Assembly: GCF_964204645.1 (NCBI RefSeq)
Contig: NC_134031.1
Coordinates: forward strand, 13,813,807 to 13,877,806
Direction: 5' to 3'
Source: Tubulanus polymorphus
Taxonomy: Eukaryota; Animalia; Nemertea
DNA length: 64,000 bases
This document shows, piece by piece, positions 15,450 through 57,615 of this stretch. The notes beneath the pieces are model-generated. The model had not been told where the DNA came from, ran no database searches, and saw nothing but the letters and a program-made list of their open reading frames with translations. Each line of letters begins with the position of its first letter. Position 1 is the stretch's first letter. A program made the translations under genes and the position numbers.

Positions 15450-15638
15450 AGCGTTTTAAGTATTAAGTGAGTGCGACAAGCCTACCATGCCTATGTGCTA
15501 CAAACACAACTTTTTCCCCTCTCGTCGGCCCTACAGTGATGTTACTAATAACTGGTGCCATTATAACATGGATAGGATTTGGTCAGGACTAGCCTAAAGT
15601 CTAATTCAGTGTATGTACTAATTCACTCGATAGGCTTA

Positions 15639-21897: not shown

Positions 21898-21987
21898 AGT
21901 AATTAGAAAAGTGGGGTTTCAGGCCAGAGGGCGTGAGGGCGAGACACCACTCATCACCACAAGTAATTTTTTTTCCTAATAAATGGG
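21898..21987 (+). repeat. Left TIR of element A (includes the pPolB start codon)
   Basis: Exact reverse complement of 39263-39352. Confidence 0.95.
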
Positions 21988-24900
21988 GGAGAATGAACAC
22001 CAACCAGAAAACAATAATGTCAATAAAAATCAATATTATTGCCAATATTGTAAAAAATACATCGATACATCTCATAAAACACGACATGAAAAAACTGCAA
22101 ATCATATAAAAAATGTAATAGATTTTGAAACTCCAGAAAATTCTAATGAAAGAAAAGAACGATTAGAAAATATGAATGTGGATGAAATAAAATGTGAAGT
22201 TTGTAATGAATTTATAGTAAAAAGGAATTATAATAGACATCTCGAATCACAAAAACATTATAAAAATTTAAATAAAAATGTTTTAGGATTAGAATATTTT
22301 GATAATAAACCTCAACAAGTAAAAGAATCAACTTCAAAAACTAAATCCATTTCAAATAAACCCTACATGGAAAATGTTAGAAATTATATTGATTCACTAG
22401 AAATAAAAGATACAATTGAAATCTTAGAAACATTACATAGTAAAATTGGTCCTGCAGCTATTATATTTAGATTTTTTAAAGGCACAACAATAGAAGATTA
22501 TAGTAAATTTAATGAAATAATAGAAAAAATACTAGATTTGATAACAGATGTTGAATATCCAAAAATTAGTATCTCTGGGAAAGTAAGTTTTATAAAGTCA
22601 GAAGAAAAAATGGATTATAATATTCAAACACTCTCTGAAGAAATAATTTCAAAAACACAAATAAAAGAGAAGTTAGAAAAAATATTAAATGAATTTAAAC
22701 GTCATATTGAAGAAAGATATTTTGAGGGTTCTGGTTTAACATTGAATGAAATTATATATTTAGATTTAAATGTTTATAATACAAAAAGAAATAAAACATC
22801 AAAAAGTAATAAAATGTTTAAAAATGATTCAAACTTTATAACAGAAAAAGATATGAAAGCATCAAGTTATATCAAATTACCATTTATAACAAAAGCAGTA
22901 ATAAATATTCAAAATGAAGATAATAAATGTTTTCTATGGTCAATTATTAGTTGCTTACATCCAACAGAAGAACATGTTTATAGAATAACAGATTACCGGA
23001 AATATGAAACATTATATAAAATTGATCAATATCCAGTAACTATAAAAATGATTCCTAAAATAGAAAAAGTTAATAATTTAAAAATAAATGTATTTGAATT
23101 AATGCAATTACCAAAGACAAAAGGTGAAAATATTAAAGATTATACATTGGAAGCTTTATATTTAACAGAATATTATGATGATGAAAATGCTATAGATTTG
23201 TTATATTACAAAAAAGATGAAAATGAACATTATATGTGGTTAAAACAAATTGATTTATTCTTTAGAACAACAGAAAGTGATCATCATCGTAAAATTTATC
23301 TTTGTAGAAAATGTTTATCTAAATTTATGACTGAGAATACATTATTAAAACATAAAGAATTATGTGATAATAAAGATTTTTGTAAATTAATAATGCCAAC
23401 AGAAAAAGATTATAAATTGAAATTTACTAATCATAAATTTAAAAATATTGTTCCATTTGTAATTTATGGGGATTTTGAATCGTTGAATAAAGAATTAACT
23501 GATCAAGATAGAAAAGAAATATATAACAAAAAGCAATTATTAAAATCAATGGATAAAGGAAATGAATTAAATGAAGATATAATTCAAGACCCACCAATTA
23601 TAAATACAATTAAAAAAGTTCATCAAAGAGCTGCTGCTTATGGAATTTATATAAAATCAAATTATCCCGAATTATATGAAAGTCAATATATTTCTTTTAG
23701 AGGTGAAAATGTAGTTAATGATTTTTGTGATAAAATGATTGAATTAGAAAGTGATTTTGCAAAATTATTAAACAAAAATAAAAGAATAGTTATGACAAAA
23801 GAAGATGAAATTGATTTTAATTATGCAACTCATTGTTGTTACTGTGAAAAACGTTTTTATTCATTTGATAAAAAAGTTAGAGATCATGATCATTTAAATT
23901 CAAAATATCGTGGAGCTGCTCATGAAGATTGCAATTTACAAGCTAAGAAAGTTAATTTCGTACCAATATTATTTCATAATTTATCAGGCTATGATACCCA
24001 TCTATTTATAAAACAATTATCGGGAAAATTGGGTGCAATTAATCAAGAAATAGAAGAATATAATGCTATGAATGAAGCAAATGTAAGAAAATATGATTTT
24101 AAACTATTAGCTAAAACATCTGAAAATTATATTTCATTTCAATTTGGTTGCATTAGATTTTTAGATTCTTATAGATTTCTAGCAAGTTCATTAGATAATT
24201 TATCAAAATCATTAGTTGATAATGATTTTATTATAACTCGATATTATTATCCAAATGAACAAGATTTTAAATTATTGAGATATAAAGGCGCAATTCCTTA
24301 TTCATTTTATAAAACACATGATGATTTTAATGTAACAGAATTATTAAAAGATCAATTTTATGATCAATTAAAAGAGGAGTATGTGAAAGACGAAGTGTTT
24401 AATAGAACATTAAATATTTGGAACCATTTTAAGATGAAAAATCATGGCGAATTAGTTGATTTATATTTAAAATCAGATGTTATGATATTGGCAGATATAT
24501 TTGAAAAGTTTAGAGAAGTTAATCTAAACCATTTTAATGTTGACCCTTGTTATTGTTATTCAAGTCCTGGTTTAACCTGGCAATGTGGTTTAAAATATAC
24601 AAATGTAGAATTAGATTTATTAAAAGAACCAGATATGGTTTTATTATTTGAAAAATCAATTAGAGGTGGAATTAGTGGTGTTATGGGAGATAGGTATTTT
24701 AAAGCAAATGATGAATATAAATTATTATATATTGACGCCAATAATTTATATGGTTGGGCAATGATGCAACCTCAACCATATAAAAATTTTATATTAACAG
24801 AAGTTGAAAATGATGATAAAACTGATTGGGAAAGCGCAATTACGAGTTTAAAAGATGAAGCGCCAATTGGTTACTTCTTTGTTATAGACTTAGAATATCC

Positions 24901-27049
24901 TGAACATATTAAATTTAAATCTAGAAACTTACCTTATTGCCCTGAACATTTAACTGTAGATGATAGTTATTTAAGTGAATACCAGAAGAAAGTAAAACCG
25001 AAAGATCATGTTTTTACGGAAAAATTAATACTTACTCAAAATAATAAATACAATTATATTGTTCATTATAGAATGTTAAAATTTTATCTAAAACAAGGAA
25101 TGAAATTAAAGAAAGTACATAGATATATTGAATTTAATCAATCGAAGTAGTTAGAAAAATATATAGATTTCAATACTCAACAGAGAACCATATCAAAAAC
25201 AGATTTTGAAAAAGATTTCTTTAAATTAATGAACAATAGTTTTTATGGTAAAACATGTGAAAATATTAGAAATAGAAATGATATTGAATTAGTAAATAAT
25301 TCTGAAAGATTAAGACATTTACAATCAAGTCCTAGACATTTAGGAAATAAAAGATTTGAAGATTATTTAACAGCAGTTAAATTAAAAAGAACATCAATGA
25401 AATTTAATAAACCTATATTTATTGGTTCGACTGTTTTAGAAGTATCAAAATTATTAATGTATGATTTTTATTATAATGTTTTACAACCACTTTTTGGAGA
25501 AAAACATATAGAAATATTATATTTTGATTCTGTAACAGCTGACACCCCAATATTATTAAAATGTAATGATAAAATATTGGTAAGAAGAATTTCAGAAATA
25601 ATTCCAAAACAAAATGAATGTTATATTTCATATGGTGAAAAAGAATTAATACAAATAAATGGATTAATGGATGTTTGGACAAGAAATGGATGGAAAAAAT
25701 TAAAGAATATTATTAGACATAAAACAAATAAGAAAATCTATAGAGTTAGAACTAAATTAGGATTTGTAGATGTTACAGAAGATCATAGTTTAATTAAACA
25801 AAATGGTGATGAAATAAAACCAACTGATATAAAAATTAGAGATGAATTATTACATAAAAGATTTTACCCAAGAATGAATCATATGTCATTTGATGAAATA
25901 ATTGATAATATTTATAATATAGAACCCGAAACATTGGAAGAAAAAGAATATTTTATCAAAGGATTTTTCATGGGCGATGGTTCAGCAGGTGTGTATAATT
26001 ATGTTAGTGGAACTAAATATTGTTGGTATTTATGCAATCAAGACTTAAAATTATTAGAAAGAATTAAGAAATTCTGTGAAGAAGTTTATTCACATAAAAC
26101 ATTTAGAATCATGGACCATATGAAATCATCCGCGGTTTATAGAATACTTGTAAATAATCCTAAAGATTTTGCTACAGAATATAATAATGAATTCTATATT
26201 CATGCAATAGTGAAAAGTAATACTTCAACAAAAGAAAAGATAGTTCCAGATTACGTATTAAATGCAAAAAATAATTTAAGAAAATGGTTCTTCATTGGAT
26301 TCTATGCTGCAGATGGTTCAAAAAGTTTCAAAAACCGCAAAACAATATCTTTAGCTCAAAAAGGAAAAGTTGCTATATCAGGATTGAATATATTATGCAG
26401 TTCATTAGGATTTAATATGAATATTGGATTGATTAAATCTAAACCAAATTGCTTTAATTTAAGCCATGTAGAAAATGAGTTAACAGAAGAAGTTAAAGAT
26501 TTATTTGAAATATATAACCCAACAGATTATGTTTATGATTTATCAACTGAAGATGGTACATTTAACTGTGGATTTCCATTAATAGCAGTCAATACGGATG
26601 CCTACATACTAAAAATCAAGACAAATGACATAACAAAAGACTTAAAAACATTAAAACATCATTTTGATTTTAGCAATTATCCTAAAGATCATGAACTATT
26701 TAGCAATGATAATAAAAAGATTCCTGGTAAATTTAAAGATGAATTAGGAGGTGATGAAATGATTGAATTTGTTGGGATAAGAAGTAAAATGTATTCATAT
26801 AAAACTAAAGAACATGAAGCTAAAAAGTTAAAAGGAATAACAAAACTTGTGGTTGATAATCATATAGAATTTCAAGATTATATAAAGTGTTTATATAAAT
26901 CAATTGTAATGAAACACAAAATGAATTGTTTAAGATCAGAAAATCATGAAATGTATATAAATGAAATTGAAAAAACTAGTTTAAATCCATTTGATGATAA
27001 AAGGCATATTTTAGATGATGGTATAAAAACATTACCTTATGGCCATTAA
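21983..27049 (+). pseudogene. polB: Protein-primed family B DNA polymerase polyprotein (N-terminal C2H2-like fingers, vOTU-like protease, exonuclease with HNH/EndoVII-like insert, polymerase, intein); interrupted by TGG>TAG at 25148-25150
   Basis: Motifs YGDFES, FHNLSGYD, FLDS, YLKSDV, YIDANNLYG, KLMNNSFYGK, YFD/TD, KMY, NPFDDKR; NEDNKCFLW..HY protease-like motif; DHDH..YRGAAH..CN. ORFs 21983-25150 and 25229-27049 are in the same frame and copy B has Trp at the stop. Confidence 0.93.
25529..26593 (+). mobile_element. Intein (355 aa) with LAGLIDADG homing endonuclease in pPolB motif C, copy A
   Basis: ILYFD/SVTADTPILL ... TEDH (block B) ... FIKGFFMGDG and FFIGFYAADG (two LAGLIDADG helices) ... 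YVYDLST (block F) ... LIAVN/TDAY; removal restores YFDTD. Confidence 0.95.
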
Positions 27050-36925: not shown

Positions 36926-37531
36926 ATGGTAGGTGAAAAGAAAATAAAATCTAAAAATGGTGATGTTCCAATTGAAAAAACTTTAGATAATTTAGGAATA
37001 ACAGAAACAAAATTAACTCCAGATGATGGTGTTTTAAATAATGTTACAACAAATAATAATTATGAATATTATCTTTATTGTAAACATCAATTAGAAATAT
37101 TAATAGCATCTGGAAAATGTAAAAATTTTGTCAGTAAAAATTTAACTTATAATGAATTAGACACAATGAAATCAGATGAAATTATTAGATTATTTAAGAT
37201 TTATGAAGCCGCGAGAACAGCTAGAATTAATGACGCGATATCATAAAATGTAGTAAAAGGTTATAGTAAATTATGTAATTATATACTACCAATTGAAAAT
37301 GAAAATAGATTATATTCCGATTTAAAAAATGACTATTTAGTTATGACTGAATTAAATAAATGGATTGGATATTTATCATTTCAATTAGGTGGATTTATGA
37401 CATTATTATCAACTGGAGTTATAACATTTTCAAATATTGAAAGTAAAAATATTTCTATAATAAATGAGCGAGGTGAAAGAAGTGAAGGAATTAACTGTGA
37501 AGAAAAAACCGAGAACTCAGAAACAAATTGA
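36926..37531 (+). pseudogene. Hypothetical protein split by GAA>TAA at 37244-37246
   Basis: ORFs 36926-37246 and 37343-37531 are one reading frame that is continuous in copy B (42181-42723). Confidence 0.8.
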
Positions 37532-37832
37532 ATGGTCTCGACAATTAGGAATTAAATCACAAGAATATAAAAAAGCTGTAAAAGAAAAAATAAGTAATAA
37601 AAATGTTAATAAAAATGGTGAAAATATTGTTATTTCTACTCCTTCTAATAATAGAATATTTGATAAATGTCTATATTCTACAGTTGGATTTGTAATTGTA
37701 TTCATTTTGATTGGGTGTAATTGGTATAAGAAATCAAATAAAATTCATGATATTAATAATTCTGAAACAAATGCTATCAAAAATGAAAATACTTCTGAAA
37801 TTCCAAAATTGATAATAAAAAAAATGGATTAA
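37464..37832 (+). CDS. Basic protein with single TM segment (122 aa)
   Basis: ATAAATG start; KKKPRT basic stretch; VGFVIVFILIG hydrophobic helix. Confidence 0.72.
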   Translation: MSEVKEVKELTVKKKPRTQKQIEWSRQLGIKSQEYKKAVKEKISNKNVNKNGENIVISTPSNNRIFDKCLYSTVGFVIVFILIGCNWYKKSNKIHDINNSETNAIKNENTSEIPKLIIKKMD

Positions 37833-38317
37833 TATTTTAGAAAAAAAGCAAAAAAAATAATTTTTTTTAATTAATTGAATATTAATTGAATATCTCACTA
37901 CTTTTGTCTATCTATGCGGAGCAATTAAATTGTCCAGATAAGTCATTTCGGATTCTAGATATTCATTATTTTTATTATTTTATTTTGTTTTTACTTGAAT
38001 ATTGTATTACAGTCGTTTCTTATTATTAGTTTTTTCTTAAATTGAAAGATGGCAGCACTGGGTGTGATGCTAAAATGAATATTTGAATTTGAATTTGAAT
38101 TTGTTAATCAATTAACATAGTAATTGATCACTAATTTGATTAAAAATTATATCATAATGAAGTTAAAAATACATAATTCATTTATCAGTTTCATTCTTAC
38201 ATTCTTTTCATTCAGAATAATTTATAATTTCAAATTTCACATATTTTTTTAACACCAACAACATTTACTTAGGTGTTTTAGCTAAGTATATAAGGTAATT
38301 CATTCAACCACTAGAGT

Positions 38318-38600
38318 GCCGCCGGGCTTGGCTTGCAGGGGCATTTCGAAAATGCACCTTTGCTCCGTGGTTCTCCTTCAGTTTCGACTTTCGATCCTCC
38401 TTTCGGGGGTAAGGGGTTGATAGGAAATGCATCAGGCGCCTTTAATATAATGTGTTTCCTGTCAACCATTGAAGGAGAATTGGTGAGGTGTGGGTCACAG
38501 GGGTGTAAGTAGAAGTGCTTGGGGATAGGTATCTCGTGGCGCCTCTCAATAACGGGATGCTTATCCCCTAAAAACTCTGCGAGTCAAGACGGGTGGTTTT
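38318..38600 (+). ncRNA. Putative structured non-coding RNA (~280 nt), possibly a Pol III transcript
   Basis: GC-rich ORF-less island with nested helices whose mismatches are G-U wobbles on the + strand; TATATAA at 38287; first TTTT at 38597-38600. Confidence 0.7.
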
Positions 38601-38940
38601 GCTAAAACTTACCATAAAAACATTGAAATATTCCTTTTAATCACGATAGAATGATGACTATCCTCCTGTTGTCACGGTTGAGCTAATTTAAATAAACCTC
38701 GTTTTCAGCAACTAATGAAAACGTAGTAATTCAATACCAGCTAACTGGCTTGTGTGTGTTGTATGTACTGTGTGCTTATTATATAACAACAACGTTGTGC
38801 AACACCTGTTTGATTGATAAATATTCAAATGAAGCACTCTCTTACAATAATATGTAACAGATGTACTGTATGATTATAGTTGTTTATAAAACGACTAAGG
38901 TCATTTTGGATTCTAGATATTCATTATTTTTATTTCTTAT

Positions 38941-39267
38941 TTAATCAACAATTTCTAAATCATGATGACCGTCTTCATTTTTCCCATGATATATTATTTT
39001 AAATCCTACTAAATCTTTCAATTCCTCCATACTCAATGAAACCCATTTATCGGGTAAAAACACTTTAAATTCTCGTGATGTACTAACATTACAGTAGCTT
39101 AAATTAGCTGATACTTTCTCTCCATATTTAGTTTTTATCTTTTCTAATTTCAATATTTTATGTTCAATTTCTTTTGTAACATCAACTAACTTTTTTATTT
39201 CAAATTGTTTTTTTGCTGGTTTTATTCTGTTATTTATTGTTGCTAAGAATGCTTTTCTATCTCCCAT
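38941..39267 (-). CDS. 108-aa terminal protein (possibly OB-fold ssDNA-binding; unverified)
   Basis: Start codon inside right TIR; nearly identical in copy B; TKYG...VFLP beta-rich pattern. Confidence 0.7.
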   Translation of the reverse strand: MGDRKAFLATINNRIKPAKKQFEIKKLVDVTKEIEHKILKLEKIKTKYGEKVSANLSYCNVSTSREFKVFLPDKWVSLSMEELKDLVGFKIIYHGKNEDGHHDLEIVD

Positions 39268-39352
39268 TTATTAGGAAAAAAAATTACTTGTGGTGATGAG
39301 TGGTGTCTCGCCCTCACGCCCTCTGGCCTGAAACCCCACTTTTCTAATTACT
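39263..39352 (-). repeat. Right TIR of element A
   Basis: Reverse complement of 21898-21987; followed by TSD TATAAT. Confidence 0.95.
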
Positions 39353-40037: not shown

Positions 40038-40240
40038 TTATAAAGAAAGAAATTAACCTACCCTACCTCATTTCTACGTATTTTACCTACCGTACCTCAT
40101 GCATATCTACCTAAATATATTTTAATCGAATTAGATTTATCAAATTCAATACAACATTTACAATTCTTGATATTTTATATTGAATTATATAACGAATTAA
40201 AGGCAATAACTGCTTACATTGATCACAATATTTATAATCA

Positions 40241-41208
40241 TTTTTAGCCCACTTGCGACTTAAGCCTATTGCGTTCACTTTTCGTCCGTCTGTCCGTAGA
40301 CGGAATCCAGTTATTTTGGGAAGTTTTGAAGACGCTTCAAGGTAATGTCTTGATATTTGGGTTAAACATGTATCTACACTAGACACATCTTCAACCCAAA
40401 AACTGGCCCTGTCAGAATCAAGATGGCCGACTGGCAGCCATTGTTGTTCGTCAACATCAGCACTTTTTACACAGTTTTGAACTTTTTGAGGAAAATTTTG
40501 TAGACGCATTGATCAATTAGCTTGATCTGTCGTATATATTTGAATCTTCCAAAAGCCCATTCCAGCGTAAGAAAAATTGGGTCGATCGGACTCAAGATGG
40601 CCGTCCTATGACATTTTTAGTGGCCAAAATTGTCGATTTTGGCCCGAATTCTGAGTCCTGAAGCTTCCTACTGGTTTGCCATTTCTCATTGCAATTTGTC
40701 ATTGGTACTCTTTGGAAAGGGATGTTTTATACCTGAGAGACAGGTACGTATTTTTGATCAGCCAATCATGACGCCATTGGCGGCCATCTTGGTGTTGTCA
40801 GTACTCTTTCGTAGGTGGAAAAACGTTTTTTGACATTATATTGATACCTAAGCATATTTTGTTACCACTGGTTTTAAGGACATTATTATATTTTATATGG
40901 TCACCAGGGCGCGTTGAATAGTAGAATAATTTAGTATTTCCTTATTAGATTGGTACCTAGGCATATTTTGTTACCATGATCGATTACAAATTTGTTGCTT
41001 ATGACATGTTCTATGATTGTGGTTAGTTTCAAGGTCATTGGGTTTCGCATATGGTCACCACGGGGCGTTGAATAGTAGAATTACTTAGTATTTCCATATT
41101 AAAATGGTAACGAGGCATATTTTTTATCACAATCAATTACAAAATCTGCTGACACGTTCTATGATTGTGGTGAGTTTCAAGGTCATTAGTTTTTGTATAT
41201 GGTATATG
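40241..41208 (+). mobile_element. HINE copy 3, 5' part (interrupted by Polinton B)
   Basis: Same 5' end and tandem block as other copies; sequence resumes at 57616. Confidence 0.85.
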
Positions 41209-41329
41209 AGTAATTAGAAAAGTGGGGTTTCAGATCAGAGGGCGAGAGGGCGAGACACCACTCATCACCACAAGTAATTTTTTTTTTCCTACTCATCACC
41301 ACAAGTAATTTTTTTTCCTAATAAATGGG
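41209..41329 (+). repeat. TIR of element B with internal ~30-bp tandem duplication
   Basis: Matches 57526-57615; ACTCATCACCACAAGTAAT(T)nCCT occurs twice (41260-41290, 41291-41319). Confidence 0.92.
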
Positions 41330-41651
41330 AGATAGAAAAGCATTCTTAGCAACAATAAATAACAGAATAAAACCAGCAAAAAAACAATTTGAAATAAAAA
41401 AGTTAGTTGATGTTACAAAAGAAATTGAACATAAAATATTGAAATTAGAAAAGATAAAAACTAAATATGGAGAGAAAGTATCAGCTAATTTAAGCTACTG
41501 TAATGTTAGTACATCACGAGAATTTAAAGTGTTTTTACCTGATAAATGGGTTTCATTGAGTACGGAGGAATTGAAAGATTTAGTAGGATTTAAAATAATA
41601 TATCATGGGAAAAATGAAGACGGTCATCATGATTTAGAAATTGTTGATTAA
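41325..41651 (+). CDS. 108-aa terminal protein, copy B
   Basis: One substitution relative to copy A. Confidence 0.7.
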   Translation: MGDRKAFLATINNRIKPAKKQFEIKKLVDVTKEIEHKILKLEKIKTKYGEKVSANLSYCNVSTSREFKVFLPDKWVSLSTEELKDLVGFKIIYHGKNEDGHHDLEIVD

Positions 41652-41776
41652 ATTTAAAAAAAAATAAATTAATAAAAATAATGAATATCTAGAATCCGAA
41701 ATGACTTATCTGGACAATTTAATTGCTCCACATAGATAGACAAAAGTAGTGAGATATTCAATTAATATTCAATTAA

Positions 41777-42184
41777 TTAAAAAAAATTATTTTTTTTTTG
41801 CTTTTTTTCTAAAATATTAATCCATTTTTTTATTATCAATTTTGGAATTTCAGAAGTACTTTCATTTTTGATAGCAGTTGGTTCAGAATTACTAATATCA
41901 TGAATTTTATTTGATTTCTTATACCAATTACACCCAATCAAAATGAATACAATTACAAATCCAACTGTAAAATATAAATATTTATCAAATATTCTACTAT
42001 CAGAAGGAGTAGAAATAACAATATTTTCACCATTTTTATTAACATTTTTATTACTTATTTTTTCTTTTACAGCTTTTTTATATTCTTGTGATTTAATTCC
42101 TAATTGTCGAGACCATTCAATTTGTTTCTGAGTTCTCGGTTTTTTCTTCACAGTTAATTCCTTCACTTCTTTCACTTCGCTCAT
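41777..42184 (-). CDS. Basic single-TM protein, copy B (C-terminus altered by an A-run indel)
   Basis: Homolog of 37464-37832. Confidence 0.68.
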   Translation of the reverse strand: MSEVKEVKELTVKKKPRTQKQIEWSRQLGIKSQEYKKAVKEKISNKNVNKNGENIVISTPSDSRIFDKYLYFTVGFVIVFILIGCNWYKKSNKIHDISNSEPTAIKNESTSEIPKLIIKKWINILEKKQKKNNFF

Positions 42185-42723
42185 TTATTATAGAAATATT
42201 TTTTACTTTCAATATTTGAAAATGTTATAACCCCAGTTGATAATAATGTCATAAATCCACCTAATTGAAATGATAAATATCCAATCCATTTATTTAATTC
42301 AGTCATAACTAAATAATCATTTTTTAAATCGGAATATAATCTATTTTCATCTACAATTGGTAGTATATAATTACATAATTTACTATAACCTTTTACTACA
42401 TTTTCTGATATCGCGTCATTAATTTTAGCTGTTCTCGCGGCTTCATAAATCTTAAATAATCTAATAATTTCAACTGATTTCATTGTATCTAATTCATTAT
42501 AAGTTAAATTTTTATCAACAAATTTTTTACATTTTCCAGATGCTATTAATATTTCTAATTGATGTTTGCAATAAAGATAATATTCATAATTATTATTTGT
42601 TGTAACATTATTTAAAGCACCATCATCTGGAGTTAATTTTGTTTCTGTTATTCCTAAATTATCTAAAGTTTTTTCAATTGGAACATCACCATTTTTAGAT
42701 TTTATTTTCTTTTCACCTCCCAT
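42181..42723 (-). CDS. Hypothetical protein (180 aa), copy B
   Basis: Continuous homolog of 36926-37531. Confidence 0.75.
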   Translation of the reverse strand: MGGEKKIKSKNGDVPIEKTLDNLGITETKLTPDDGALNNVTTNNNYEYYLYCKHQLEILIASGKCKKFVDKNLTYNELDTMKSVEIIRLFKIYEAARTAKINDAISENVVKGYSKLCNYILPIVDENRLYSDLKNDYLVMTELNKWIGYLSFQLGGFMTLLSTGVITFSNIESKKYFYNK

Positions 42724-42754
42724 TTATAAAACAAATAAATTAGTTGTGTTGTTG

Positions 42755-43027
42755 CAACTAGAATTCAACTAGAATTCAACTAGAATGTAACTAGAATTCA
42801 ACTAGATTAACAAGCTAGTTGAAATATTGTTGTTTTTGTTTATTTCTTGTTAAATCTAGTTGATTTTTGTTTCAACTACTAACAACTAGAATTCAACTAG
42901 AATGTAACTAGAATTAGACTAGATTGACAAGCTAGTTAAAATATTGTTAAATCTAGTTGATTTTTGTTACAACTACCAATAACTAGAATTCAACTAGAAT
43001 TCAATTAGATTAACAAGCTAGTTGAAT
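42755..43027. repeat. AACTAG/CTAGTT repeat array, copy B
   Basis: Counterpart of 36642-36895 with a different unit number. Confidence 0.85.
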
Positions 43028-43636
43028 TTAAATAAATTCATATTTAAATGGGTGTTGTAATCTAAATAGTAATTTTGATCTTTTAATATTTTTCAACTTA
43101 TCCATATATTCATTATGTAAATCATGTGGAATAATATCATTTTCCTCAAGTGCATTTTTCATTGATTTTCTATCTTTATTGTAGAATAAAACTAGAAATC
43201 TTATATTCTCTCTAAAATCTTTCACAATTGAATTATATTTTTGATTTAAAACCCAAGTTGTTATCCCAAAATGTCTCCCAGAGAAAGCTAAATAGCATAA
43301 CTCACTTTCTCTAATTTTTGAATCATGTAAATTTGCACAATCATCTATGATAAATAATGTATTTGATCCTTTATAAATATCAATTGCTATTTTTATACAA
43401 TTATCTAAATTTTCTTTTACTGTTTTAGGATCTAATATAATAAATTTATTATTCCTAGTAATATTTCTATCATAAGTTTGATTAAATTCATATGTTGGAC
43501 AAAATAATACTATATTATCAAAATAGTTTTTGTAAACAGTTTCTAATAAATTTAATATGAAATAAGTTTTTCCACAATTTGTTACGCCAGAAATTAACAT
43601 ATTATGAGGCTCAAATATGAATAATTCCTTATTCAT
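43028..43636 (-). CDS. A32/FtsK-like packaging ATPase, copy B
   Basis: Walker A/B and GRH motifs intact. Confidence 0.93.
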   Translation of the reverse strand: MNKELFIFEPHNMLISGVTNCGKTYFILNLLETVYKNYFDNIVLFCPTYEFNQTYDRNITRNNKFIILDPKTVKENLDNCIKIAIDIYKGSNTLFIIDDCANLHDSKIRESELCYLAFSGRHFGITTWVLNQKYNSIVKDFRENIRFLVLFYNKDRKSMKNALEENDIIPHDLHNEYMDKLKNIKRSKLLFRLQHPFKYEFI

Positions 43637-44764
43637 TTATATATTTTTAATTTTACTTGATAATATCCATTCATTGAATTTATCTGGCCATCCAACCCAT
43701 TTTACTAAAGAATATTTTTTTCTTTTAATAGTTTTTGTTTTTAGTACTTTTTCAATTTTATATTCTTGTTCTATATTTTCAGTAGTTAAACTTAATTCTT
43801 CTTCATAAAAATATCCATCAACTTCTTCACCATCTAAATCTTCTAATTTATAGACATATGGTTTAGTTGTTATTACCTTTTTTATTTTATATATTTCTCT
43901 AGTAAAATTTCGATCGTATCCTTTATCAAATATCTTTTTATACTTAGAAATTCTAACATTTTGACCAACTTTAAATTTAGGTTCACCAAAATCATCTACA
44001 AGAAATGCTCCATATAAATTATTCCAAACAATTTCAGCATTTTCAGGTTTTCTAGCATCAATAGGTTTCATTCCAATAGAAGAATGATAAGAATTATTAT
44101 ATCCTTCTATCAATTTTGGTAAAACATCAATCCATTTAAAAGTATTATTTGCTGTAAAATATTTCCACATTCTTGTTCTTAATGTTCTATTAAATCGTTC
44201 AACAACTGCTGCTTTTTTATCCGATTTTGTTGAAAAATATTTAATATTATGAAAATCTAAAAGTCCATGAACAAGTGAATTATCAAATTCTTTTCCATCA
44301 TCAAATTGTATTTTTTCTGGTTTTAGTTTATCATCCGAAAGAAATTTTCTTAAAACATTTGATGTTTGTACAGCATCTTTTCTATAAAGTGGGAAACTCC
44401 ATACATAACGACTAAAAATATCAATTATATTCAATAACCACCAATAATCATCATTATCTTTCTTAACATTTTTCATATCAATTAAATCTCCTTGCCACTG
44501 TTGATCTACATAACTTACCATAGTTTTACGAGTTTTATATTTTCTAACAATTTTTTTATGTGTTGTATATGTTGGTTGTTCTAACATAAATTCATTTATA
44601 TCTTTATATTTAACTAAATTTTGTGGGATTATCTTATCTAATTTATCTTGTTTTACTTTACGCCATATATTTTTAGTAGAAGAATAAGCAACCGAACTCT
44701 CAGGGTTGTAATATAAATTTCTTAAATATTGTTCTTTAATATTAGGAGTTTTTTTACCACTCAT
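43637..44764 (-). CDS. rve integrase with chromodomain, copy B
   Basis: DDE motifs and chromodomain intact. Confidence 0.95.
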   Translation of the reverse strand: MSGKKTPNIKEQYLRNLYYNPESSVAYSSTKNIWRKVKQDKLDKIIPQNLVKYKDINEFMLEQPTYTTHKKIVRKYKTRKTMVSYVDQQWQGDLIDMKNVKKDNDDYWWLLNIIDIFSRYVWSFPLYRKDAVQTSNVLRKFLSDDKLKPEKIQFDDGKEFDNSLVHGLLDFHNIKYFSTKSDKKAAVVERFNRTLRTRMWKYFTANNTFKWIDVLPKLIEGYNNSYHSSIGMKPIDARKPENAEIVWNNLYGAFLVDDFGEPKFKVGQNVRISKYKKIFDKGYDRNFTREIYKIKKVITTKPYVYKLEDLDGEEVDGYFYEEELSLTTENIEQEYKIEKVLKTKTIKRKKYSLVKWVGWPDKFNEWILSSKIKNI

Positions 44765-44794
44765 TTATATATCCTTAATTTTAACTTTATATTT

Positions 44795-46042
44795 CTAATA
44801 TTGAATACTATCTAATTGTGAATTTACAATATTTAATTGTGCGTCAGATATAATATAAATATGCATTTTAAAATTTTTGATTCCTTTATTCTTTTTCATG
44901 AATAATTGTATTCCATCTTTTGTATTTTGTAGTTTTTTTCCAGAACCATGTAATGAATTATCTTCAGTTGTTCTAAAATCTAACCATAATGCATATTTAT
45001 TACCGGTATAATAATCAATTTGATTAATATTACAATTTTCAAATGATTTTATTTTTTCATTCATAAAATGTTTTTTAATTTCTACCCATTGATCAATCAT
45101 TCTCATTCCTTGACAAAATATTTTATTCGCTATTCCTTCGATAGTTATTTCTACTTTTGTTATTTCAGGATTATAATAATTATCAACATTTATTGCGCCA
45201 TTAGTATACGTTCCAATGGTAAAAAATATTAATATACCTTTAATAGATCTTCTAGGGAAGTTAATATTCACATTAATTATTTCATCATTTGCATTAATAG
45301 TTACAGTTTTAAATTTATCAATATAATCATATAATAATGAAAACCCTTGATTATATTTAGTTTGAATTATACTTGAAATATTTTCATCAGTTACTATATC
45401 ATATTCTAAACATATATTCGATAATTTATAACTCATATCTTTATTAACGCTAGATATTACGATTTCATTTACAGGAGCAAATGTTATCTCAAATATAATA
45501 TCTTCTTGAATTGCGTATTTATATAAAGGTGCATTATTATTTATCAATTCAAAGTCTAATGGAATTTTATATTTGCTTCCATATATACTTTTTATCAATT
45601 TATCTACATCATTTGTTAATATTGCGCTATTAGCTTCTGATCTTAATTTATTTTGGTTTTCTGATTGAATACCCTGAAATATCATATTATTTCTATTTTC
45701 TTTAGTTAACCATAAATCTTTATAATGCATAAATAAATTATAATCATCTAATGAGAAAACTGTTTCCGGACCAATCTTTATTGTTAACTTTTTAATCAAA
45801 TATCTTCCAACATTATCAACGACATAATTATTATTATTACCGATTACTTTTATATCGGCTGATAAATAAATACTATTTGGAACATAAAAAGTATTTTGTG
45901 TTAATCTAGGGATTTTAACGTATAAAGTTTCATCGGGATTAATATTTGAAGGGTTATGAGTAATTATATGATGTGATCTTTCTGCTTTAATAGCATTAGA
46001 TATTCTATGATTCTTCGAAGGACTTATATAACTCCCACTCAT
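44795..46042 (-). CDS. Probable major capsid protein, full length (415 aa), copy B
   Basis: Homolog of 33627-34853 with intact C-terminus. Confidence 0.74.
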   Translation of the reverse strand: MSGSYISPSKNHRISNAIKAERSHHIITHNPSNINPDETLYVKIPRLTQNTFYVPNSIYLSADIKVIGNNNNYVVDNVGRYLIKKLTIKIGPETVFSLDDYNLFMHYKDLWLTKENRNNMIFQGIQSENQNKLRSEANSAILTNDVDKLIKSIYGSKYKIPLDFELINNNAPLYKYAIQEDIIFEITFAPVNEIVISSVNKDMSYKLSNICLEYDIVTDENISSIIQTKYNQGFSLLYDYIDKFKTVTINANDEIINVNINFPRRSIKGILIFFTIGTYTNGAINVDNYYNPEITKVEITIEGIANKIFCQGMRMIDQWVEIKKHFMNEKIKSFENCNINQIDYYTGNKYALWLDFRTTEDNSLHGSGKKLQNTKDGIQLFMKKNKGIKNFKMHIYIISDAQLNIVNSQLDSIQY

Positions 46043-46113
46043 TTATTTAACAAAAAAATTAATTATTTATTTTTTGATATCATGGTTTACTTGATATTTT
46101 TTGATATCATGGT

Positions 46114-47521
46114 TTACTTGATATTTTTTGATATCATATTCACTAACCCAAAAATAATAGCACTAACAACTGTGATTAAAAATAAAATAATATGTTCAGC
46201 AGCAAAGTTAAGAATATTCCCAGCAGATTTCAATATAAAACCAACAATTGAAGCAATAACTCCTGGCAATGCTAAATATTTTGCTAATTTCTTTAAACCA
46301 TCCTTAACTTTATCTTGTATAGAATTATTGCCTGGAGGTTTATCTGGTTTATTTGGAGTAGGAGTAGATTTCAAAGCATTTGATATTGCTAAACCAATTG
46401 TTGTGAATAACATAGTTACAGCTGTTAGAATTGAAAGAATTGTTATTCCTTCTAATTTAAATAATAACTTTATTCTATCTTTCAATGATATTTCAGAATT
46501 TGGTTTTATCAACAAATCTTTAAAAATAACTTTTAATCTATTTATATTATAATCATACGATTTTAACGATAATTTAATTTCTTCTTTTTGTAATTCTATG
46601 TTATATTCTAAATCATCTTTTTCTTTTTCTAAACGTAACTCTTTTTGCCTATATTCTATTTCATCAATTACTTGATGATCTAAATCAGACTTTAATTGTT
46701 CTATTTCTTTATTTTTATCAGTTAATTCTTTTTCTAAAGTTCTAATTTTAAAATCTCTTATACTTTTATTATGTGCAATTTTATCAGATGCAAGTCTTAT
46801 ACTAATCTCTAATTGCTTTATCAGAAAATATATCTAAATCTTCTAATTCTTGATCTGTTGCATCAAGTAATCCCTTCGGTAAAAGTTTTTCAGTTTGAAC
46901 TTCTCTTGAATTAGGTCTACTAGTTTTGGAAGTTTTATCTTCTTTAGGAATTGTTTCTGGTTCTAAATTTTCATTAATTATCTTCAAAAAATCATTATTT
47001 CTTCGATTAAATTCTCTTCTATTTTGATTTATCTCTTCTTCTGTAACATCAGTTATAACATCATTATTGATTTTTTTAATTCTAGATTGTTCTAATTTAA
47101 TAAAAGTTGATTTTGTTATTATTTTATCAAGACTTTTATTAGAAGAAATCTTAAAATAATAGTCATCTTTCAAATGCCAATAATAATCACCATTTAAATA
47201 TTTCAAATCTTTTACTAAATAATTCACACCTTTATTTGTTATATTGAATCCAGATTTTTCTAATATTGGTTTGAATTTATCTGTTAATTCGTCATATTCT
47301 AGTTCTTTTTTCATTAAATCTGGATTTTCATTTTCAATGTCCAATCTTGAACGTGCTTTATTAACATATTCATTGGTATCAGGTCTTGCTAAATTAGAAT
47401 TATATGCTGTTTCATTTTCGTTACTGAAACTTGTTTCATCAAAATCAGGTGGTTGTTCATCAGTTATACCAGGTTCATCAAAAGGATCCATTCCAATATC
47501 TTCTCCACCTTCTACTTCCAT
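46114..47521 (-). pseudogene. Coiled-coil/membrane protein, copy B, frameshifted near 46800
   Basis: Homology to 32008-33606 continues in another frame (ASDKIAHNKSIRDFKIR); also lacks WELSKKSAA and has 27-bp tandem duplications at its 3' end. Confidence 0.8.
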
Positions 47522-47537
47522 TTATATAATAAAAAAA

Positions 47538-48839
47538 TTAAAATTTAAAATATAATATTCCTCCGATTACAATTCCTATACAAGTTATAGCTAATTTAGT
47601 ATTTTCATGGGATTTATTATCATCATTTAGTTTAATTATATCATGTTGAATTTTATCAGTTTTTATATCTTCTGATGTATTGTAATCTTTTATTTTAGAA
47701 TCATTATTTAATTTAATATTCTTAGTTTTAGTTTCTGTTGATTGAATATGTTTTTTATTTTTTTCACCTTCCATTAATTTTGGAGCAGTGATAATCTTTT
47801 TATTTATATCATTTAACCCAAATGAATTATTTATTGTTGCAGTTTTAATTAGATTATTATAACCAATTATATTTCCCATCTTCAATACTAAATCCTTAGA
47901 AATAATTAATAGATTAGGGCCTATACAATAATTAAGTCTTACATGAGATTTATCTAAATAATTTTGATATCTTATAATGTTTTCTGGAATCGATCTATTT
48001 TTATCATTATGAATTGAATCTTCAAATAAAACTTTAAACTGTTTCTGCGCATCGAATGAAGTGTTATCATTTCCAATTATTGGGGATCTTGTTTCAACTT
48101 GAGCGCCTAAAATACATATCAAATAAATTCTAATAGATTGATTTATTCTTTGTATACCTGATTTTGTAAAACCTTCACCATTTTCTAAAATGAAATTAAC
48201 CCAACTATTATTATTATCAATTTTATAATTATGATAAGCTCCAATTCTATGCATATAATCAATTCTTTTTATTTCATACTCTTCACCAACACCTTGCAAT
48301 TTACCATGCGCTCTAAAATCGGAATTAATATTTATATTAAATTCATTACATATTTTATAAAACTTGGATATATTAATATTATTATCCAATTCTTTAAAAT
48401 ATTTAGACCCGGGTAAAGGACATTCTAATTCATTTAATATTATTCTGATTTGAAAATATGTGTGAAATCTAAATATTGTGTGAATTAATTTTAAATCAGA
48501 ATACTTCAAATTTTTATCTAAGTTATTTAAATGATCATTCCAACTAATTCCACATCCTGTTGTTGCACAATAAACAGCAAAATTTAATTGATTCTGCCAA
48601 TATTTCATATTAGATTTTACTTTATATATATGATATTCATCTCGAGTAAAAGTAACTTCATATGTATTAAATATATTTTCCATTTTAGAAATAAAAAACT
48701 GTGATTCATTAACATAAATTTCTAAATTAGTTAATGAATTTAAAACTATATTTTTATATGTAATATTTTTCTTAAAATCTATTGCCGGAATATTATATTT
48801 AATTGATTTATTATATTGGAAAGCTTTTGGAAACCCCAT
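47538..48839 (-). CDS. 433-aa C-terminally anchored protein, copy B
   Basis: Near-identical to 30690-31991. Confidence 0.8.
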   Translation of the reverse strand: MGFPKAFQYNKSIKYNIPAIDFKKNITYKNIVLNSLTNLEIYVNESQFFISKMENIFNTYEVTFTRDEYHIYKVKSNMKYWQNQLNFAVYCATTGCGISWNDHLNNLDKNLKYSDLKLIHTIFRFHTYFQIRIILNELECPLPGSKYFKELDNNINISKFYKICNEFNININSDFRAHGKLQGVGEEYEIKRIDYMHRIGAYHNYKIDNNNSWVNFILENGEGFTKSGIQRINQSIRIYLICILGAQVETRSPIIGNDNTSFDAQKQFKVLFEDSIHNDKNRSIPENIIRYQNYLDKSHVRLNYCIGPNLLIISKDLVLKMGNIIGYNNLIKTATINNSFGLNDINKKIITAPKLMEGEKNKKHIQSTETKTKNIKLNNDSKIKDYNTSEDIKTDKIQHDIIKLNDDNKSHENTKLAITCIGIVIGGILYFKF

Positions 48840-48855
48840 TTATATAACTAAAAAA

Positions 48856-49290
48856 TTAATAATTTATTAATTCTTTTAATAATTTATCTTGTTCTTCAAC
48901 TGTTATATGACCATTTAAACTTATTATATAATCTAGTGTGTTCTTTAATTTATTAATTTCTTTTATATTAGTTTTAATTTTTTCTTTATTACTTTTTATA
49001 TTTAATTTTGAACTTATACCAGTTAAAACACTTGAACTTAATCCTAATACACCAATTGATATAGCTAAAGGTGTTAATGGACTGAATATTGCTAAAAATG
49101 TTATTACAGAACTAATTGTAACCGAACCACTTATAATCAAATAATATATAATTTTACTTTTTAAATATTTTTTCTTTTTAACTTTTAAGTCACTTTCAAA
49201 TTCTAATATTTGTTTTTCTAAATATTTTTTTAATTTAGTTTTATTTATATCATGAGGAATAATATCAATACTATCAACTTTATCTTCCAT
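48856..49290 (-). CDS. Two-TM protein, copy B
   Basis: Homolog of 30239-30673. Confidence 0.78.
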   Translation of the reverse strand: MEDKVDSIDIIPHDINKTKLKKYLEKQILEFESDLKVKKKKYLKSKIIYYLIISGSVTISSVITFLAIFSPLTPLAISIGVLGLSSSVLTGISSKLNIKSNKEKIKTNIKEINKLKNTLDYIISLNGHITVEEQDKLLKELINY

Positions 49291-49322
49291 TTATTTAGAA
49301 TAAAAATTACTTATTAGTAAAT

Positions 49323-49733
49323 TTATAAGCAACAAATATAACAATAACTTGTTCCACCTAAAATCCATATTATTTCATATTTCTGTTGTTCTTTACTTGG
49401 GGTATAATAATCTGATAATTTAGGTTTGTATAGATGTAATTTTTCTTTATTTGTTACTGCGTTATATAAACTCATTGCATCATCAACTGATTGAAAATCT
49501 CTATGTGAAATCTTCTGATCATATAATTCTTTATTGATGTAATCCATATAGTTTTGTCTCTTTTCTCTATATTCTTCTGCAGCTTTATTGTATTTCTCTA
49601 ACGCTAAGTTATGTCTTCTTTGTTCTCCTAATGAACTATTTTTATCAATATGTTTAAATAAATAACCACCACCAGTAAATGCTAAAGCGTTAACAATTGC
49701 CGATCCTATAATAGTTATAATTGCAGAAGCCAT
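49323..49733 (-). CDS. Membrane protein, copy B (frameshift alters the C-terminal TM)
   Basis: Homolog of 29797-30219; diverges after LGGT. Confidence 0.7.
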   Translation of the reverse strand: MASAIITIIGSAIVNALAFTGGGYLFKHIDKNSSLGEQRRHNLALEKYNKAAEEYREKRQNYMDYINKELYDQKISHRDFQSVDDAMSLYNAVTNKEKLHLYKPKLSDYYTPSKEQQKYEIIWILGGTSYCYICCL

Positions 49734-49757
49734 TTATTTAACAAAAAAATTATGCAT

Positions 49758-49979
49758 TTATATGGGAGGAATATATTTTTGTTTTTCCAAATAATCAATA
49801 GTTAAATTAGATAAAGTAACTGCTAATGTTAACTTTAAAATATCATTTATATCAAATCTATCAACATTAACACTTCCCATTTTGAATACTTTTTTTAATA
49901 CCATTGAATAACCAACAGTTCCAACTGATAGTAAGGCACCATTATATAATCCAGTTATTATCCACTTATTATCATTCAT
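49758..49979 (-). CDS. Small hydrophobic protein (73 aa), copy B
   Basis: Homolog of 29551-29772. Confidence 0.75.
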   Translation of the reverse strand: MNDNKWIITGLYNGALLSVGTVGYSMVLKKVFKMGSVNVDRFDINDILKLTLAVTLSNLTIDYLEKQKYIPPI

Positions 49980-50321
49980 TTATTTATCAAAAAAATTACT
50001 ATCATCAAAATATTTAGTTAACTTATTTATGATTAATTCAACATTTATTTCATTACTAGTTTTATGATTATCATATATTTTGGATAATATGTTTTTAATA
50101 TCTTCAATAATTCCATCTTCATTTAATTCATAATATTCTAAAGGTGATTTAATTAAATCAATTACTTTTTCTATATTATACTTTTCTTCATCAATCATTG
50201 ATGCATTGTTAAATGATTTACTTTTTATATCAGTAATTACATCATTTAGTTTAATTCTCATTTCTTTACCATGTTTAAAATCAAACCCAAAACATATACT
50301 CGGTCCAACAGTTATATTCAT
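49980..50321 (-). CDS. Hypothetical protein (113 aa), copy B
   Basis: Homolog of 29191-29547 with divergent middle. Confidence 0.75.
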   Translation of the reverse strand: MNITVGPSICFGFDFKHGKEMRIKLNDVITDIKSKSFNNASMIDEEKYNIEKVIDLIKSPLEYYELNEDGIIEDIKNILSKIYDNHKTSNEINVELIINKLTKYFDDSNFFDK

Positions 50322-50337
50322 TTATATAGGTGAAAAA

Positions 50338-51099
50338 TTACTCTTTACATCTTATAACTAATTCATAAATTACAGGAAAGTTATTCAAATCAATTAAGTA
50401 TCCATTATGATTTCTAATTTCTAATCTAAAATTATTAAAACTAGGAATGCATGGTTTGAAATCACAATCTGTTAAATTATAATTTATTTGCGTTCCAAAT
50501 TCTTTAACATTCTTCCATGGTAAAATGTTTAGTAAACCAGAATTACAAGTTATATCTTTAGTTGCTTCGAATGTTTTTGTAGGATCGATTAAATTGCAAT
50601 AAATATAAAAATGTGTGTAAGGTATTAAGTTTGGTGTAGTAGCGTCAATATTTGTAAAAGATCTATCTGGAAGAATTCCTAACAGTTTAGCTATAGGTTT
50701 TTTTACCATAAGTTTATGTTTTTCACTATTAGACAACCTTATCTTTATTCTATCAGAACTCTCACTTTTTAAAAATCTAATACTAAACCCAGAACTACTA
50801 CCTAATTTGTGCCAGGCTTTTCTATTAATTTCTTGTGCTAATGTATCTAAATTATATAACCCTGGTTTTAAATATATATAGACCCATTCATTTTTATTTC
50901 TAATATTAATTAAAATGACTCTATGTTCAATAGACTTATCCGATACATTGTAAAAAGAATTACATAAACTTATATTAACTAATTTTAAATCTACACAATT
51001 CTTAAATTCTCTATCTAATTGTACTAGTAAATTATGAGATTTATAATTTGTAAGTTTTCTAGAATCAACAAATATTCTGTATTCTTTTAATTCTACCAT
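50338..51099 (-). CDS. Minor capsid protein (penton), copy B
   Basis: Homolog of 28416-29174 with divergent central region. Confidence 0.8.
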   Translation of the reverse strand: MVELKEYRIFVDSRKLTNYKSHNLLVQLDREFKNCVDLKLVNISLCNSFYNVSDKSIEHRVILINIRNKNEWVYIYLKPGLYNLDTLAQEINRKAWHKLGSSSGFSIRFLKSESSDRIKIRLSNSEKHKLMVKKPIAKLLGILPDRSFTNIDATTPNLIPYTHFYIYCNLIDPTKTFEATKDITCNSGLLNILPWKNVKEFGTQINYNLTDCDFKPCIPSFNNFRLEIRNHNGYLIDLNNFPVIYELVIRCKE

Positions 51100-51167
51100 T
51101 ATTTATAACACAAAAAAATTACCGCTCATCACTAAAAATTAATTTTAATAAAATTTTTCCTTAATAA

Positions 51168-52469
51168 ATGGATGAGAAGATAGCATGCGAAATTTGTGGT
51201 GAACTTCTAAGAAAAAGTAATATGGCTCGACATATGAAAAAACATGATGAAAATTATAAACCCCCTAAAATAAACTGTCCAAAATGTAATAAATTATTCT
51301 CAAGAAATTATGTTAAAAAACATTCAGAGAAGTGTAGAATTAATGGCGCAACGGCTAATGTTGATAGTAATTCTGCTGAAGTTGAACCTGAAGTTATTTG
51401 GAAAAGACCTTTCTTATTCTATGATAAGGATAATATAAAAGATCATTTCTGTGAGCCTTGTCAAGTAAAATATAGCCCTGAAAATATAGAAGATTGGGAG
51501 AATCATCAATTTCGTAAAGCACATATAGATAAAATTTCTAATAAATTTGAAACTGAATTCAATGAAAGAAAAAATAATTTATTAGAAAAAATAAAATATG
51601 AGAAAACGTTACCAGATAATAAAGAAACAGTTGAAAAGTTAGAAAAACAATATAATGAATTAACAAGAAAAACATATTATTGTAAATATTGTAAATTGAT
51701 TATTACAACAAGTAATTCAAATCTACATAATAGAACAATAAAACATAAAGAAAACGTAAGAAAATACCAAGAGCTTAATGAAGATCTATTACCAATAAAT
51801 TATAAACGAAAATGCCCACAATGTAGTTATGCGACCTTAAGACAAGAAGGTACTGTGTTATTTTGTGTTGAATGTGGATGGCAAAAGAATTTATGGGGTG
51901 AAGAAAAAACTAGAGATTTTCTCATAGAACCAAAATTAAATTATCTAGATGAAATTTTTAAAATATTTTCTATAGAAGATCATACACCAGAATATATGCA
52001 ATGGCTTGAAAAAATGAAAATAATAGAAAATAAAAATGGTGAAATAACTAAAAAAGATATTATAAAAACAATTATTCCACCAACATTTAACACAAAACAA
52101 AAGAAAATGTATTTATATTTATTATTTAACGATTATTATGAAAAACCTAAATTAACAGAAGAAGATATGGAAAATATAAAAAAAATATTTAAACAAATAT
52201 TAATGTATCATTTGGAAAATAGAATAACAGATTCAATAAATTATGAATTCTTTTTAAATAAGATTGTAAATTATTTAAACCTAGATATTATAATTCCATT
52301 TGATGAATTAACAAACAAAAAGAAACAAAGAGAGCGAGATGAAATGTGGAACAAGATAGAACTTTATTTAAATGAGAAAAATGGAATGGAAGAAGAACCT
52401 GAACAATTAAATGAAAATGAAGAAGCCAATAGTGATTTCGAGTATGATGATATTGATTTTATGTTTTAA
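51168..52469 (+). CDS. Zinc-finger/VLTF3-like protein, copy B
   Basis: Near-identical to 27046-28347. Confidence 0.7.
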   Translation: MDEKIACEICGELLRKSNMARHMKKHDENYKPPKINCPKCNKLFSRNYVKKHSEKCRINGATANVDSNSAEVEPEVIWKRPFLFYDKDNIKDHFCEPCQVKYSPENIEDWENHQFRKAHIDKISNKFETEFNERKNNLLEKIKYEKTLPDNKETVEKLEKQYNELTRKTYYCKYCKLIITTSNSNLHNRTIKHKENVRKYQELNEDLLPINYKRKCPQCSYATLRQEGTVLFCVECGWQKNLWGEEKTRDFLIEPKLNYLDEIFKIFSIEDHTPEYMQWLEKMKIIENKNGEITKKDIIKTIIPPTFNTKQKKMYLYLLFNDYYEKPKLTEEDMENIKKIFKQILMYHLENRITDSINYEFFLNKIVNYLNLDIIIPFDELTNKKKQRERDEMWNKIELYLNEKNGMEEEPEQLNENEEANSDFEYDDIDFMF

Positions 52470-57530: not shown

Positions 57531-57615
57531 TTATTAGGGAAAAAAATTACTTGTGGTGATGAGTGGTGTCTCGCCCTCTCGCCCTCTGATCTGAAACCCC
57601 ACTTTTCTAATTACT
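57526..57615 (-). repeat. pPolB-side TIR of element B
   Basis: Reverse complement of the 41209 terminus; followed by TSD TATATG. Confidence 0.95.

Follow-up and report, generated by a model that had tools for sequence, protein, structure and literature searches.

Polintons (Mavericks) have so far been described by their proteins. The features given as defining in the cited part of PMC6431247 include a protein-primed DNA polymerase B (pPolB) and a retroviral-type integrase, and the same part describes these elements as related to adenoviruses. The open-access literature searched showed no paper that describes a Polinton with a gene for a non-coding RNA. Viral RNAs that RNA polymerase III (Pol III) makes are an already known kind. 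According to the cited sections of PMC7589676, VA RNA is a Pol III RNA of ~160 nt which has internal boxes (A and B) as well as a central GGGU-ACCC stem, binds PKR, and is cut by Dicer. Pol III genes of another type depend on upstream elements; for the chicken 7SK promoter, the passages cited from PMC2235858 place the TATA box at -31 to -25 and the proximal sequence element (PSE) at -67 to -46, with Pol III ending at T4-5.

Two further systems concern the pairing of RNA loops between molecules. The cited part of PMC4264320 discusses the palindrome GGCGCC as a contact for dimers of MMTV RNA. The packaging RNA (pRNA) of phage phi29, as characterized in the cited part of PMC4201828, has ~120 nt, ends that pair with each other, and two arms at a three-way junction whose complementary loops kiss over 2-5 bp; it binds the connector. 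The locus compared with these systems below lies in one of two neighbouring Polintons and holds an RNA structure that is conserved and probably stems from a Pol III gene; it is new both as a family and for Polintons.

Two Polintons and a cassette present in one of them

The window, i.e. the whole 64 kb stretch of DNA analysed, consists of eukaryotic DNA of ~40% GC, taken to be probably that of an animal, and two AT-rich elements of 22-24% GC. The elements and the cassette are located as follows:

21898-39352, + strand: left Polinton/Maverick, with the cassette; 93-bp terminal inverted repeats and the 6-bp target duplication TATAAT
41209-57615, - strand: right Polinton, without the cassette; ~93.5% identical to the left one; target duplication TATATG; one copy of the 35-nt repeat
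37942-38934, no strand assigned: 958-bp cassette, bounded by two direct repeats of 35 nt (at 37942-37976 and at 38900-38934; 97% alike)

Both elements are Polintons/Mavericks, as they combine terminal inverted repeats, target duplications of 6 bp (the rule for Polintons), a protein-primed PolB, a retroviral-type integrase, a packaging ATPase, and a double jelly-roll capsid. The left copy encodes pPolB with an intein, the capsid protein, an RVE integrase, and an A32 ATPase, with Pfam matches to DNA_pol_B_2 (E 4e-14), rve (E 2e-10), and Pox_A32 (E 1e-12). The capsid assignment comes from a model of the 415-aa ORF of the right copy (pLDDT 79.6), which matches the capsids of PBCV-1, iridovirus, and mavirus (E 6e-15). 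For an adenovirus-like cysteine protease, no protease family was found by Pfam in 16 left-copy and seven right-copy ORFs, a search that a divergent protease could escape.

The two full-length copies lie tail to tail, 1.9 kb apart, and the right one sits in a host repeat. A host repeat of ~1 kb with internal repeats of ~150 bp is found at 10004-11278, 15636-16750, 40240-41203, and 62685-63715. The inner terminal repeat of the right copy (41209-41330) carries a duplication of ~31 bp, and reads show similar short duplications there. In both copies the pPolB reading frame (21983-27049 and 52466-57530) is split, at different sites; its intein has a LAGLIDADG domain. The left capsid ORF stops seven codons before the right one.

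The cassette sits between two convergent ORFs, contains no ORF longer than 52 aa, and extends from the RNA described below by ~340 nt on the upstream and ~300 nt on the downstream side. Protein coding was rejected for the RNA locus, where the overlapping ORFs measure just 20-52 aa. The cassette also has a second TATATAA (38780-38786), with the next T4 at 38904; the segment 38780-38907 folds weakly (z -2.69) and could be a second small gene or a chance occurrence.

A GC-rich fold of 283 nt

The predicted RNA is built from the following parts, to which the two hairpins listed in the next section belong:

38318-38600, + strand: predicted 283-nt RNA; 88 pairs in the minimum-energy fold; the 5' G pairs with the first U of the final U4
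38318-38340, + strand: 5' strand of the closing helix P1, paired with 38575-38597; mean pair probability 0.84-0.98
38341-38518, + strand: long arm, with the helices 38341-47/38512-18, 38353-62/38498-507, 38363-65/38485-87, and 38368-82/38468-82

The closing helix leads into a three-way junction, from which a long arm tipped by hairpin 1 and, as a side arm, hairpin 2 emerge. The long arm runs to a junction that bears, besides hairpin 1, small hairpins at 38384-38394 and 38396-38409, the latter of UUCG type. Helices of at least six pairs have mean pair probabilities of 0.92-1.00. The z score of the whole fold is -8.28 on the + strand and -3.05 on the - strand (200 shuffles per strand), and it is the strongest among 63 segments scanned in the left Polinton (median z 0.05); the scan itself gave z -14.8 for the RNA locus from 16 shuffles, and the 200-shuffle value is the figure used. 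With 51% GC, the locus stands out from the Polintons around it at 22-24% and neither element has another GC island (GC fraction 0.51 across 280 nt here, at most 0.31 elsewhere in both copies). It is very probable that 38318-38600 specifies a real structured RNA.

Among unrelated segments, the one that ranks next in the fold scan lies at 36634, in an AT-rich array of palindromic repeats. Both copies have such arrays behind the ATPase gene, at 36620-36900 and 42736-43026, with a palindromic unit of 11 bp and z -7.9 (16 shuffles).

Twin hairpins with a common palindromic loop

The first-pass annotation had drawn attention to two long hairpins with unlike stems and related GGCGCC loops, and folding gives exactly these:

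38415-38432/38450-38467, + strand: hairpin 1, 18 pairs, three of them G-U; loop 38433-38449, CAGGCGCCUUUAAUAUA, with GGCGCC at 38435-38440
38521-38537/38552-38568, + strand: hairpin 2, 17 pairs, three of them G-U; loop 38538-38551, GGCGCCUCUCAAUA, with GGCGCC at 38538-38543

The stretch 38415-38568 folds with z -4.15 on the + strand, a value reached in 0 of 200 shuffles. The - strand folds far less well (z -1.93) because each stem contains three G-U pairs. Rather than standing alone, the hairpins form two arms within the larger fold 38318-38600, which has promoter-like and terminator-like signals and lies within a Polinton. Long hairpins per se are not rare, as the left Polinton has three others of 14-18 pairs with AT-rich or unrelated loops. 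An AT-rich 18-pair hairpin within a putative minor capsid ORF is kept by both Polinton copies (28512-28560 and 50955-51003).

The 64 kb window contains GGCGCC at three sites, two of which are the hairpin loops. The longer motif GGCGCCTYT(N)AATA occurs there twice vs 0.01 expected, a count which, with the pattern derived from both loops, shows only that the motif is uncommon. Among 200,000 random draws of loop pairs with the same lengths and composition, 0.035% had a 6-nt palindrome in common and 0.56% any 7-mer.

The same RNA gene might instead present its twin loops unpaired, as two protein-binding sites on a scaffold for a host protein or for U1-type zinc-finger proteins of the Polinton. U1-type zinc fingers bind RNA, and those predicted in the pPolB N-terminus and in ORF 27046-28347 (- strand) are possible partners. 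The entire loop of 13-14 nt, including AAUA, is common to both hairpins while their stems differ, and AAUA is without a variant among the 40 of 73 variant rows listed. Such binding would leave the perfect all-GC 6-nt palindrome, at the above 0.035% of random loop pairs, unexplained; it is estimated that about one in eight 13-nt motifs would contain some 6-nt palindrome. This use of the loops is the main alternative to their pairing and is considered doubtful.

Promoter-like and terminator-like signals

The transcription start is taken from the fold, +1 being G38318, the first base of the closing helix. Around it, the following signals are found:

38287-38293, + strand: TATATAA, at -31 to -25 from G38318; the sole TATAWA in the cassette upstream of the RNA
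38597-38600, + strand: TTTT, Pol III terminator-like; the first T4 on this strand after 38279, beginning at the base paired to +1
38251-38272, + strand: position of a candidate PSE, at -67 to -46, with CACC at -65 to -62
38081-38100, + strand: three overlapping ATTTGAAT, 7/8 matches to the octamer motif consensus at -237, -231, and -225, in the place of a distal element; a weak lead

The TATATAA spacing matches that of the chicken 7SK promoter (PMC2235858, in the part cited). The slots for these signals were picked after the sequence was seen; their chance frequencies are 0.032 for TATAWA in a given 7-nt slot, 0.105 for T4 in a given 10-nt slot, and 6.6% of 40-nt slots in the Polinton for an octamer-like site. 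No T4 occurs on the + strand within 38280-38596 of the window sequence, a stretch that taken alone is weak evidence, since 19% of shuffles match it; one loose end in run X1 carries a T4 inside the RNA body (by eye). An Rfam search of the 64 kb window found no host snRNA gene. Compared by eye with the consensus sequences of box A and box B, the locus has partial internal matches, TGGC at +12 and GTTTCGAC near +64. Three TTCGA motifs lie within 38345-38405, one of which, near +64, reads UUCGACU in the manner of a tRNA T-loop or of a B box that has degenerated.

Provided that the structured RNA is real, the sequence signals make a stand-alone Pol III gene likely. Pol III would then transcribe from G38318 by means of an upstream U6/7SK-type promoter and stop at T4, giving a transcript with paired ends plus a U tail.

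The fold could also act in cis, with no gene of its own, as part of a long 3' UTR or of a read-through transcript of the upstream + strand ORF 37464-37832. It lies on the same strand ~490 nt behind this ORF, between convergent genes, and has a poly(A)-like hexamer on either side, at 38139 and at 38691. However, an earlier poly(A)-like hexamer is present at 37924, ahead of the cassette, and the TATA at -31 and the T4 at the exact close of the fold would be left unexplained, which makes a 3' UTR element improbable compared with a Pol III gene.

Variation among copies

The cassette is partly present in four runs of one study. None of the listed runs is recorded as RNA, and run X7 gave 0 records, which speaks neither for nor against transcription. 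For run X5, which has the same species label, 12% of the raw DNA reads were covered; there the depth over the RNA is ~530-750, with ~460-570 in the adjacent Polinton DNA on the left and ~680-740 on the right. Since these depths resemble each other, many family members in that run must have the cassette. Contigs of run X1 show a summed depth in the cassette that is roughly 5-10 times below that of the flanks; cassette-less copies may dominate that sample, or the drop may be an artefact of summing contig depth. Given the low depth in X1 and the right copy without the cassette, integration likely does not depend on the RNA.

A captured host small-RNA gene or SINE, carried as a passenger in the Polinton, has to be weighed against a gene of the element. 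The cassette lies between 35-nt direct repeats, is absent from the right copy, and has a GC content nearer to the 40% of the host than to the 23% of the Polinton. On the other side, there is no match to an Rfam family, a retroposed copy would not bring the ~340 nt upstream and ~300 nt downstream that the cassette contains, the X5 depth over the RNA is like that of the neighbouring Polinton, and the best-supported loose ends fall at the Polinton termini, not at the RNA ends. A host passenger is accordingly given little weight.

Variants were obtained from X5 reads aligned to 38396-38612, giving 73 variant rows, 40 of which were examined; all come from related copies of one species and probably reflect few events. 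Their phase was taken from frequencies and a 'cleanest' column, not from haplotypes. Fourteen of the 40 rows lie in the stems of the two hairpins and affect 11 pairs. If the changes co-occur, 0 pairs are broken vs 6.0 expected, an outcome as good in 1 of 200,000 permutations (P 5e-6). Four of the 14 break a pair when taken alone, and each is rescued by a partner change at matching frequency. The double changes, at frequencies of 0.25-0.30, are 38420/38462 (A-U to G-C), 38424/38458 (G-C to A-U), and 38427/38455 (A-U to U-A); taken alone, these three give P 0.04. Fifteen further rows fall in other helices, where 11 keep the pair singly and four break it, the partners of the latter lying beyond the stretch aligned.

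Eleven rows concern unpaired positions. One of them, 38433 (96% of reads), faces A38449 at the edge of loop 1, so that loop 1 has 13 nt in most copies and is still closer to loop 2. Within the loops themselves just two variant rows appear among the 40 of 73 listed, both in the linker (38443 and 38545); GGCGCC is untouched among the same rows, as is AAUA. The 12 unchanged palindrome positions are not significant alone (~0.07 at the stem rate of 14 in 70). Outside the hairpins, 347 of 487 X5 reads have six extra letters behind 38362, facing a 10-nt bulge of the window's fold, and loose ends inspected by eye reveal a subfamily that skips the small hairpin 38395-38414 and keeps hairpin 1.

G-U pairs, 17 of which are present in the whole fold, interchange with A-U and G-C among the variants. 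These interchanges point to RNA of the + strand. They speak against the alternative that the hairpins act as single-stranded DNA in strand-displacement replication. The + strand does fold well as DNA (z -5.29), but the DNA ensemble is much less defined, G-U pairs are exchanged freely, and promoter-like and terminator-like signals bracket the fold, so a DNA role is barely credible. The earlier proposal of RNA hairpins with related loops thus gains from the G-U asymmetry and the pair-keeping variants, which support a + strand RNA with a conserved loop motif. As to loop conservation in homologs, which the first-pass annotation had named as a check, GGCGCC is unchanged in the listed rows (40 of 73) from one species, and no homologue was found in another host.

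Comparison with described RNAs

Like VA RNA I/II, the predicted Polinton RNA is small and highly paired, its 5' and 3' ends pair with each other, it finishes in U4, and it belongs to a lineage of protein-primed double jelly-roll DNA viruses. Unlike VA RNA, it has 283 nt, an upstream TATA, no ACCC in 38318-38600, and twin palindromic loops. Identity with VA RNA is ruled out by the length, the promoter type, the missing GGGU-ACCC stem, and the lack of an Rfam match.

The putative gene resembles those of the U6/7SK type (type 3) in its TATA at -31 to -25, its T4 end, and, as a weak lead, an octamer-like motif near -230, with internal boxes unneeded. It differs from them in being carried by a mobile element and in having a PSE that is only a candidate. 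Against the Rfam families of 7SK, U6, SRP, RNase P/MRP, Y, and vault RNAs, neither a sequence nor a structure match was found.

The analogy with phi29 pRNA had been suggested by the first-pass annotation. A pRNA-like packaging RNA would form a ring of monomers joined loop to loop and work with the ATPase on the capsid. The predicted coarse topology is alike, with paired ends, a three-way junction, and two loop-bearing arms predicted to be able to pair between identical molecules (compare the cited part of PMC4201828), and the Polinton encodes a double jelly-roll capsid and an ATPase. The arms are much longer than those of pRNA, though, and the identical palindromes would let either loop pair with either, whereas the cited part of PMC4201828 reports an RNA of ~120 nt with short kisses and connector binding. 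The host is eukaryotic, and no connector family was detected among the 23 ORFs scanned. The right copy has the same capsid and ATPase genes without the RNA. The ATPase is of the Pox A32 type; motors of this type are not known to require RNA. The analogy therefore stands for the predicted topology and falls for the motor, since an A32-type ATPase and a double jelly-roll capsid are encoded. A phi29-like packaging role is unlikely, and a ring that drives packaging in the manner of pRNA is very improbable.

With the HIV-1 DIS and the MMTV PBS palindrome GGCGCC, the Polinton RNA has in common a GC-rich palindrome of 6 nt that a hairpin loop exposes. In the HIV-1 DIS, the loop has 9 nt with flanking purines. 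The Polinton RNA departs from the retroviral DIS in having two loops per molecule, with the palindrome at the 5' side of a loop of 13-17 nt and followed by a 3' linker of 7-8 nt. Unlike RNAs with retroviral dimer palindromes, it is not a genome.

Possible loop pairing, assembly, and purpose

Within the RNA, GGCGCC has no GGYGYY site to pair with other than those in the two loops. Given a stand-alone Pol III gene, it is somewhat more likely than not that these loops kiss; the palindrome being invariant, there is no covariation on the kissing contact. In the proposed contact, a kiss of 6 bp would form between GGCGCC loops, and the linker of 7-8 nt ending in AAUA would return along the new helix. 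Linkers of this length suit minor-groove crossing in pseudoknots.

No unpaired base is present at the P1/long arm joint or at the long arm/hairpin 1 joint, so that a stacked rod is likely, with the loops far apart in one molecule. Pairing between molecules is for this reason the more likely arrangement. The arm lengths (35 pairs plus internal loops vs 18+6+17) would permit a closed monomer if the arm bends back. Taken as a whole, the best reading is that the cassette is a Pol III gene for a 283-nt rod-shaped RNA whose GGCGCC-tipped arms pair to form dimers or small rings; its chances come close to even, if slightly below.

The purpose of such an RNA is a guess. By analogy with VA RNA, an abundant and mostly double-stranded RNA might act as a decoy or scaffold for host dsRNA sensors or for the RNAi machinery, which is put forward tentatively. 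The fullest form of the proposal, likewise held as a possibility rather than a probability, is a Polinton Pol III gene with a borrowed U6-type promoter, the RNA of which self-assembles by kissing into rings or chains and serves as an independently arisen VA-RNA-like counter-defence decoy.

As cargo, a Pol III RNA gene would have no sense unless the element is expressed and there is something for it to counter or build. If true, the gene would bear on whether animal Polintons behave as viruses and would parallel adenovirus VA RNA in a related lineage. If the loops kiss, the RNA would be a new natural self-assembling RNA, and if rings or chains form, a multimeric RNA occurring naturally in a virus-like element of eukaryotes.

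Searches for relatives and rejected identities

At the gathering score, Rfam gave 0 matches in the 64 kb window, with chance-level hits around the locus (E 1.9-4.4), and no tRNA was found. The twin-loop pattern retrieved at least 120 stretches of metagenome contigs from the 15 of 64 parts scanned and a further 12 from viral contigs, all due to chance. The 138 motif matches in 131 loci include none on a stem longer than seven pairs, none that aligned to the RNA, and none that encoded Polinton proteins. A pattern derived from the stems found one viral locus of 63% GC, which is unrelated, and blastn against phage records gave no match to the RNA. With the capsid, integrase, and ATPase as queries, no related locus was found in viral and prokaryote collections; the pPolB query gave three loci at 30-44% identity. 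Neither a similar RNA nor a long hairpin was found in them, a result of little weight for loci so partial and distant. A homologue beyond this Polinton family was thus not found in collections that are poor in eukaryotic Polintons.

A microRNA precursor and an antisense guide were also rejected. In microRNA precursors, stems are usually conserved and loops variable; here the stems vary and the loops are constant, the opposite of that pattern. An antisense guide to Polinton mRNAs was dismissed because neither Polinton has GGCGCC at any other site. A hexamer as in the retroviral PBS might also pair with the 3' ends of tRNA-Lys, but this requires an upstream U, which is present in loop 2 only.

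Capsid relatives of 50-77% identity were found in the search. Some capsid relatives are filed as hypothetical proteins in several Bartonella assemblies, on contigs shorter than 2 kb (P0046, 54% identical, and P0129-P0136). These entries likely represent eukaryotic Polinton DNA in those assemblies.
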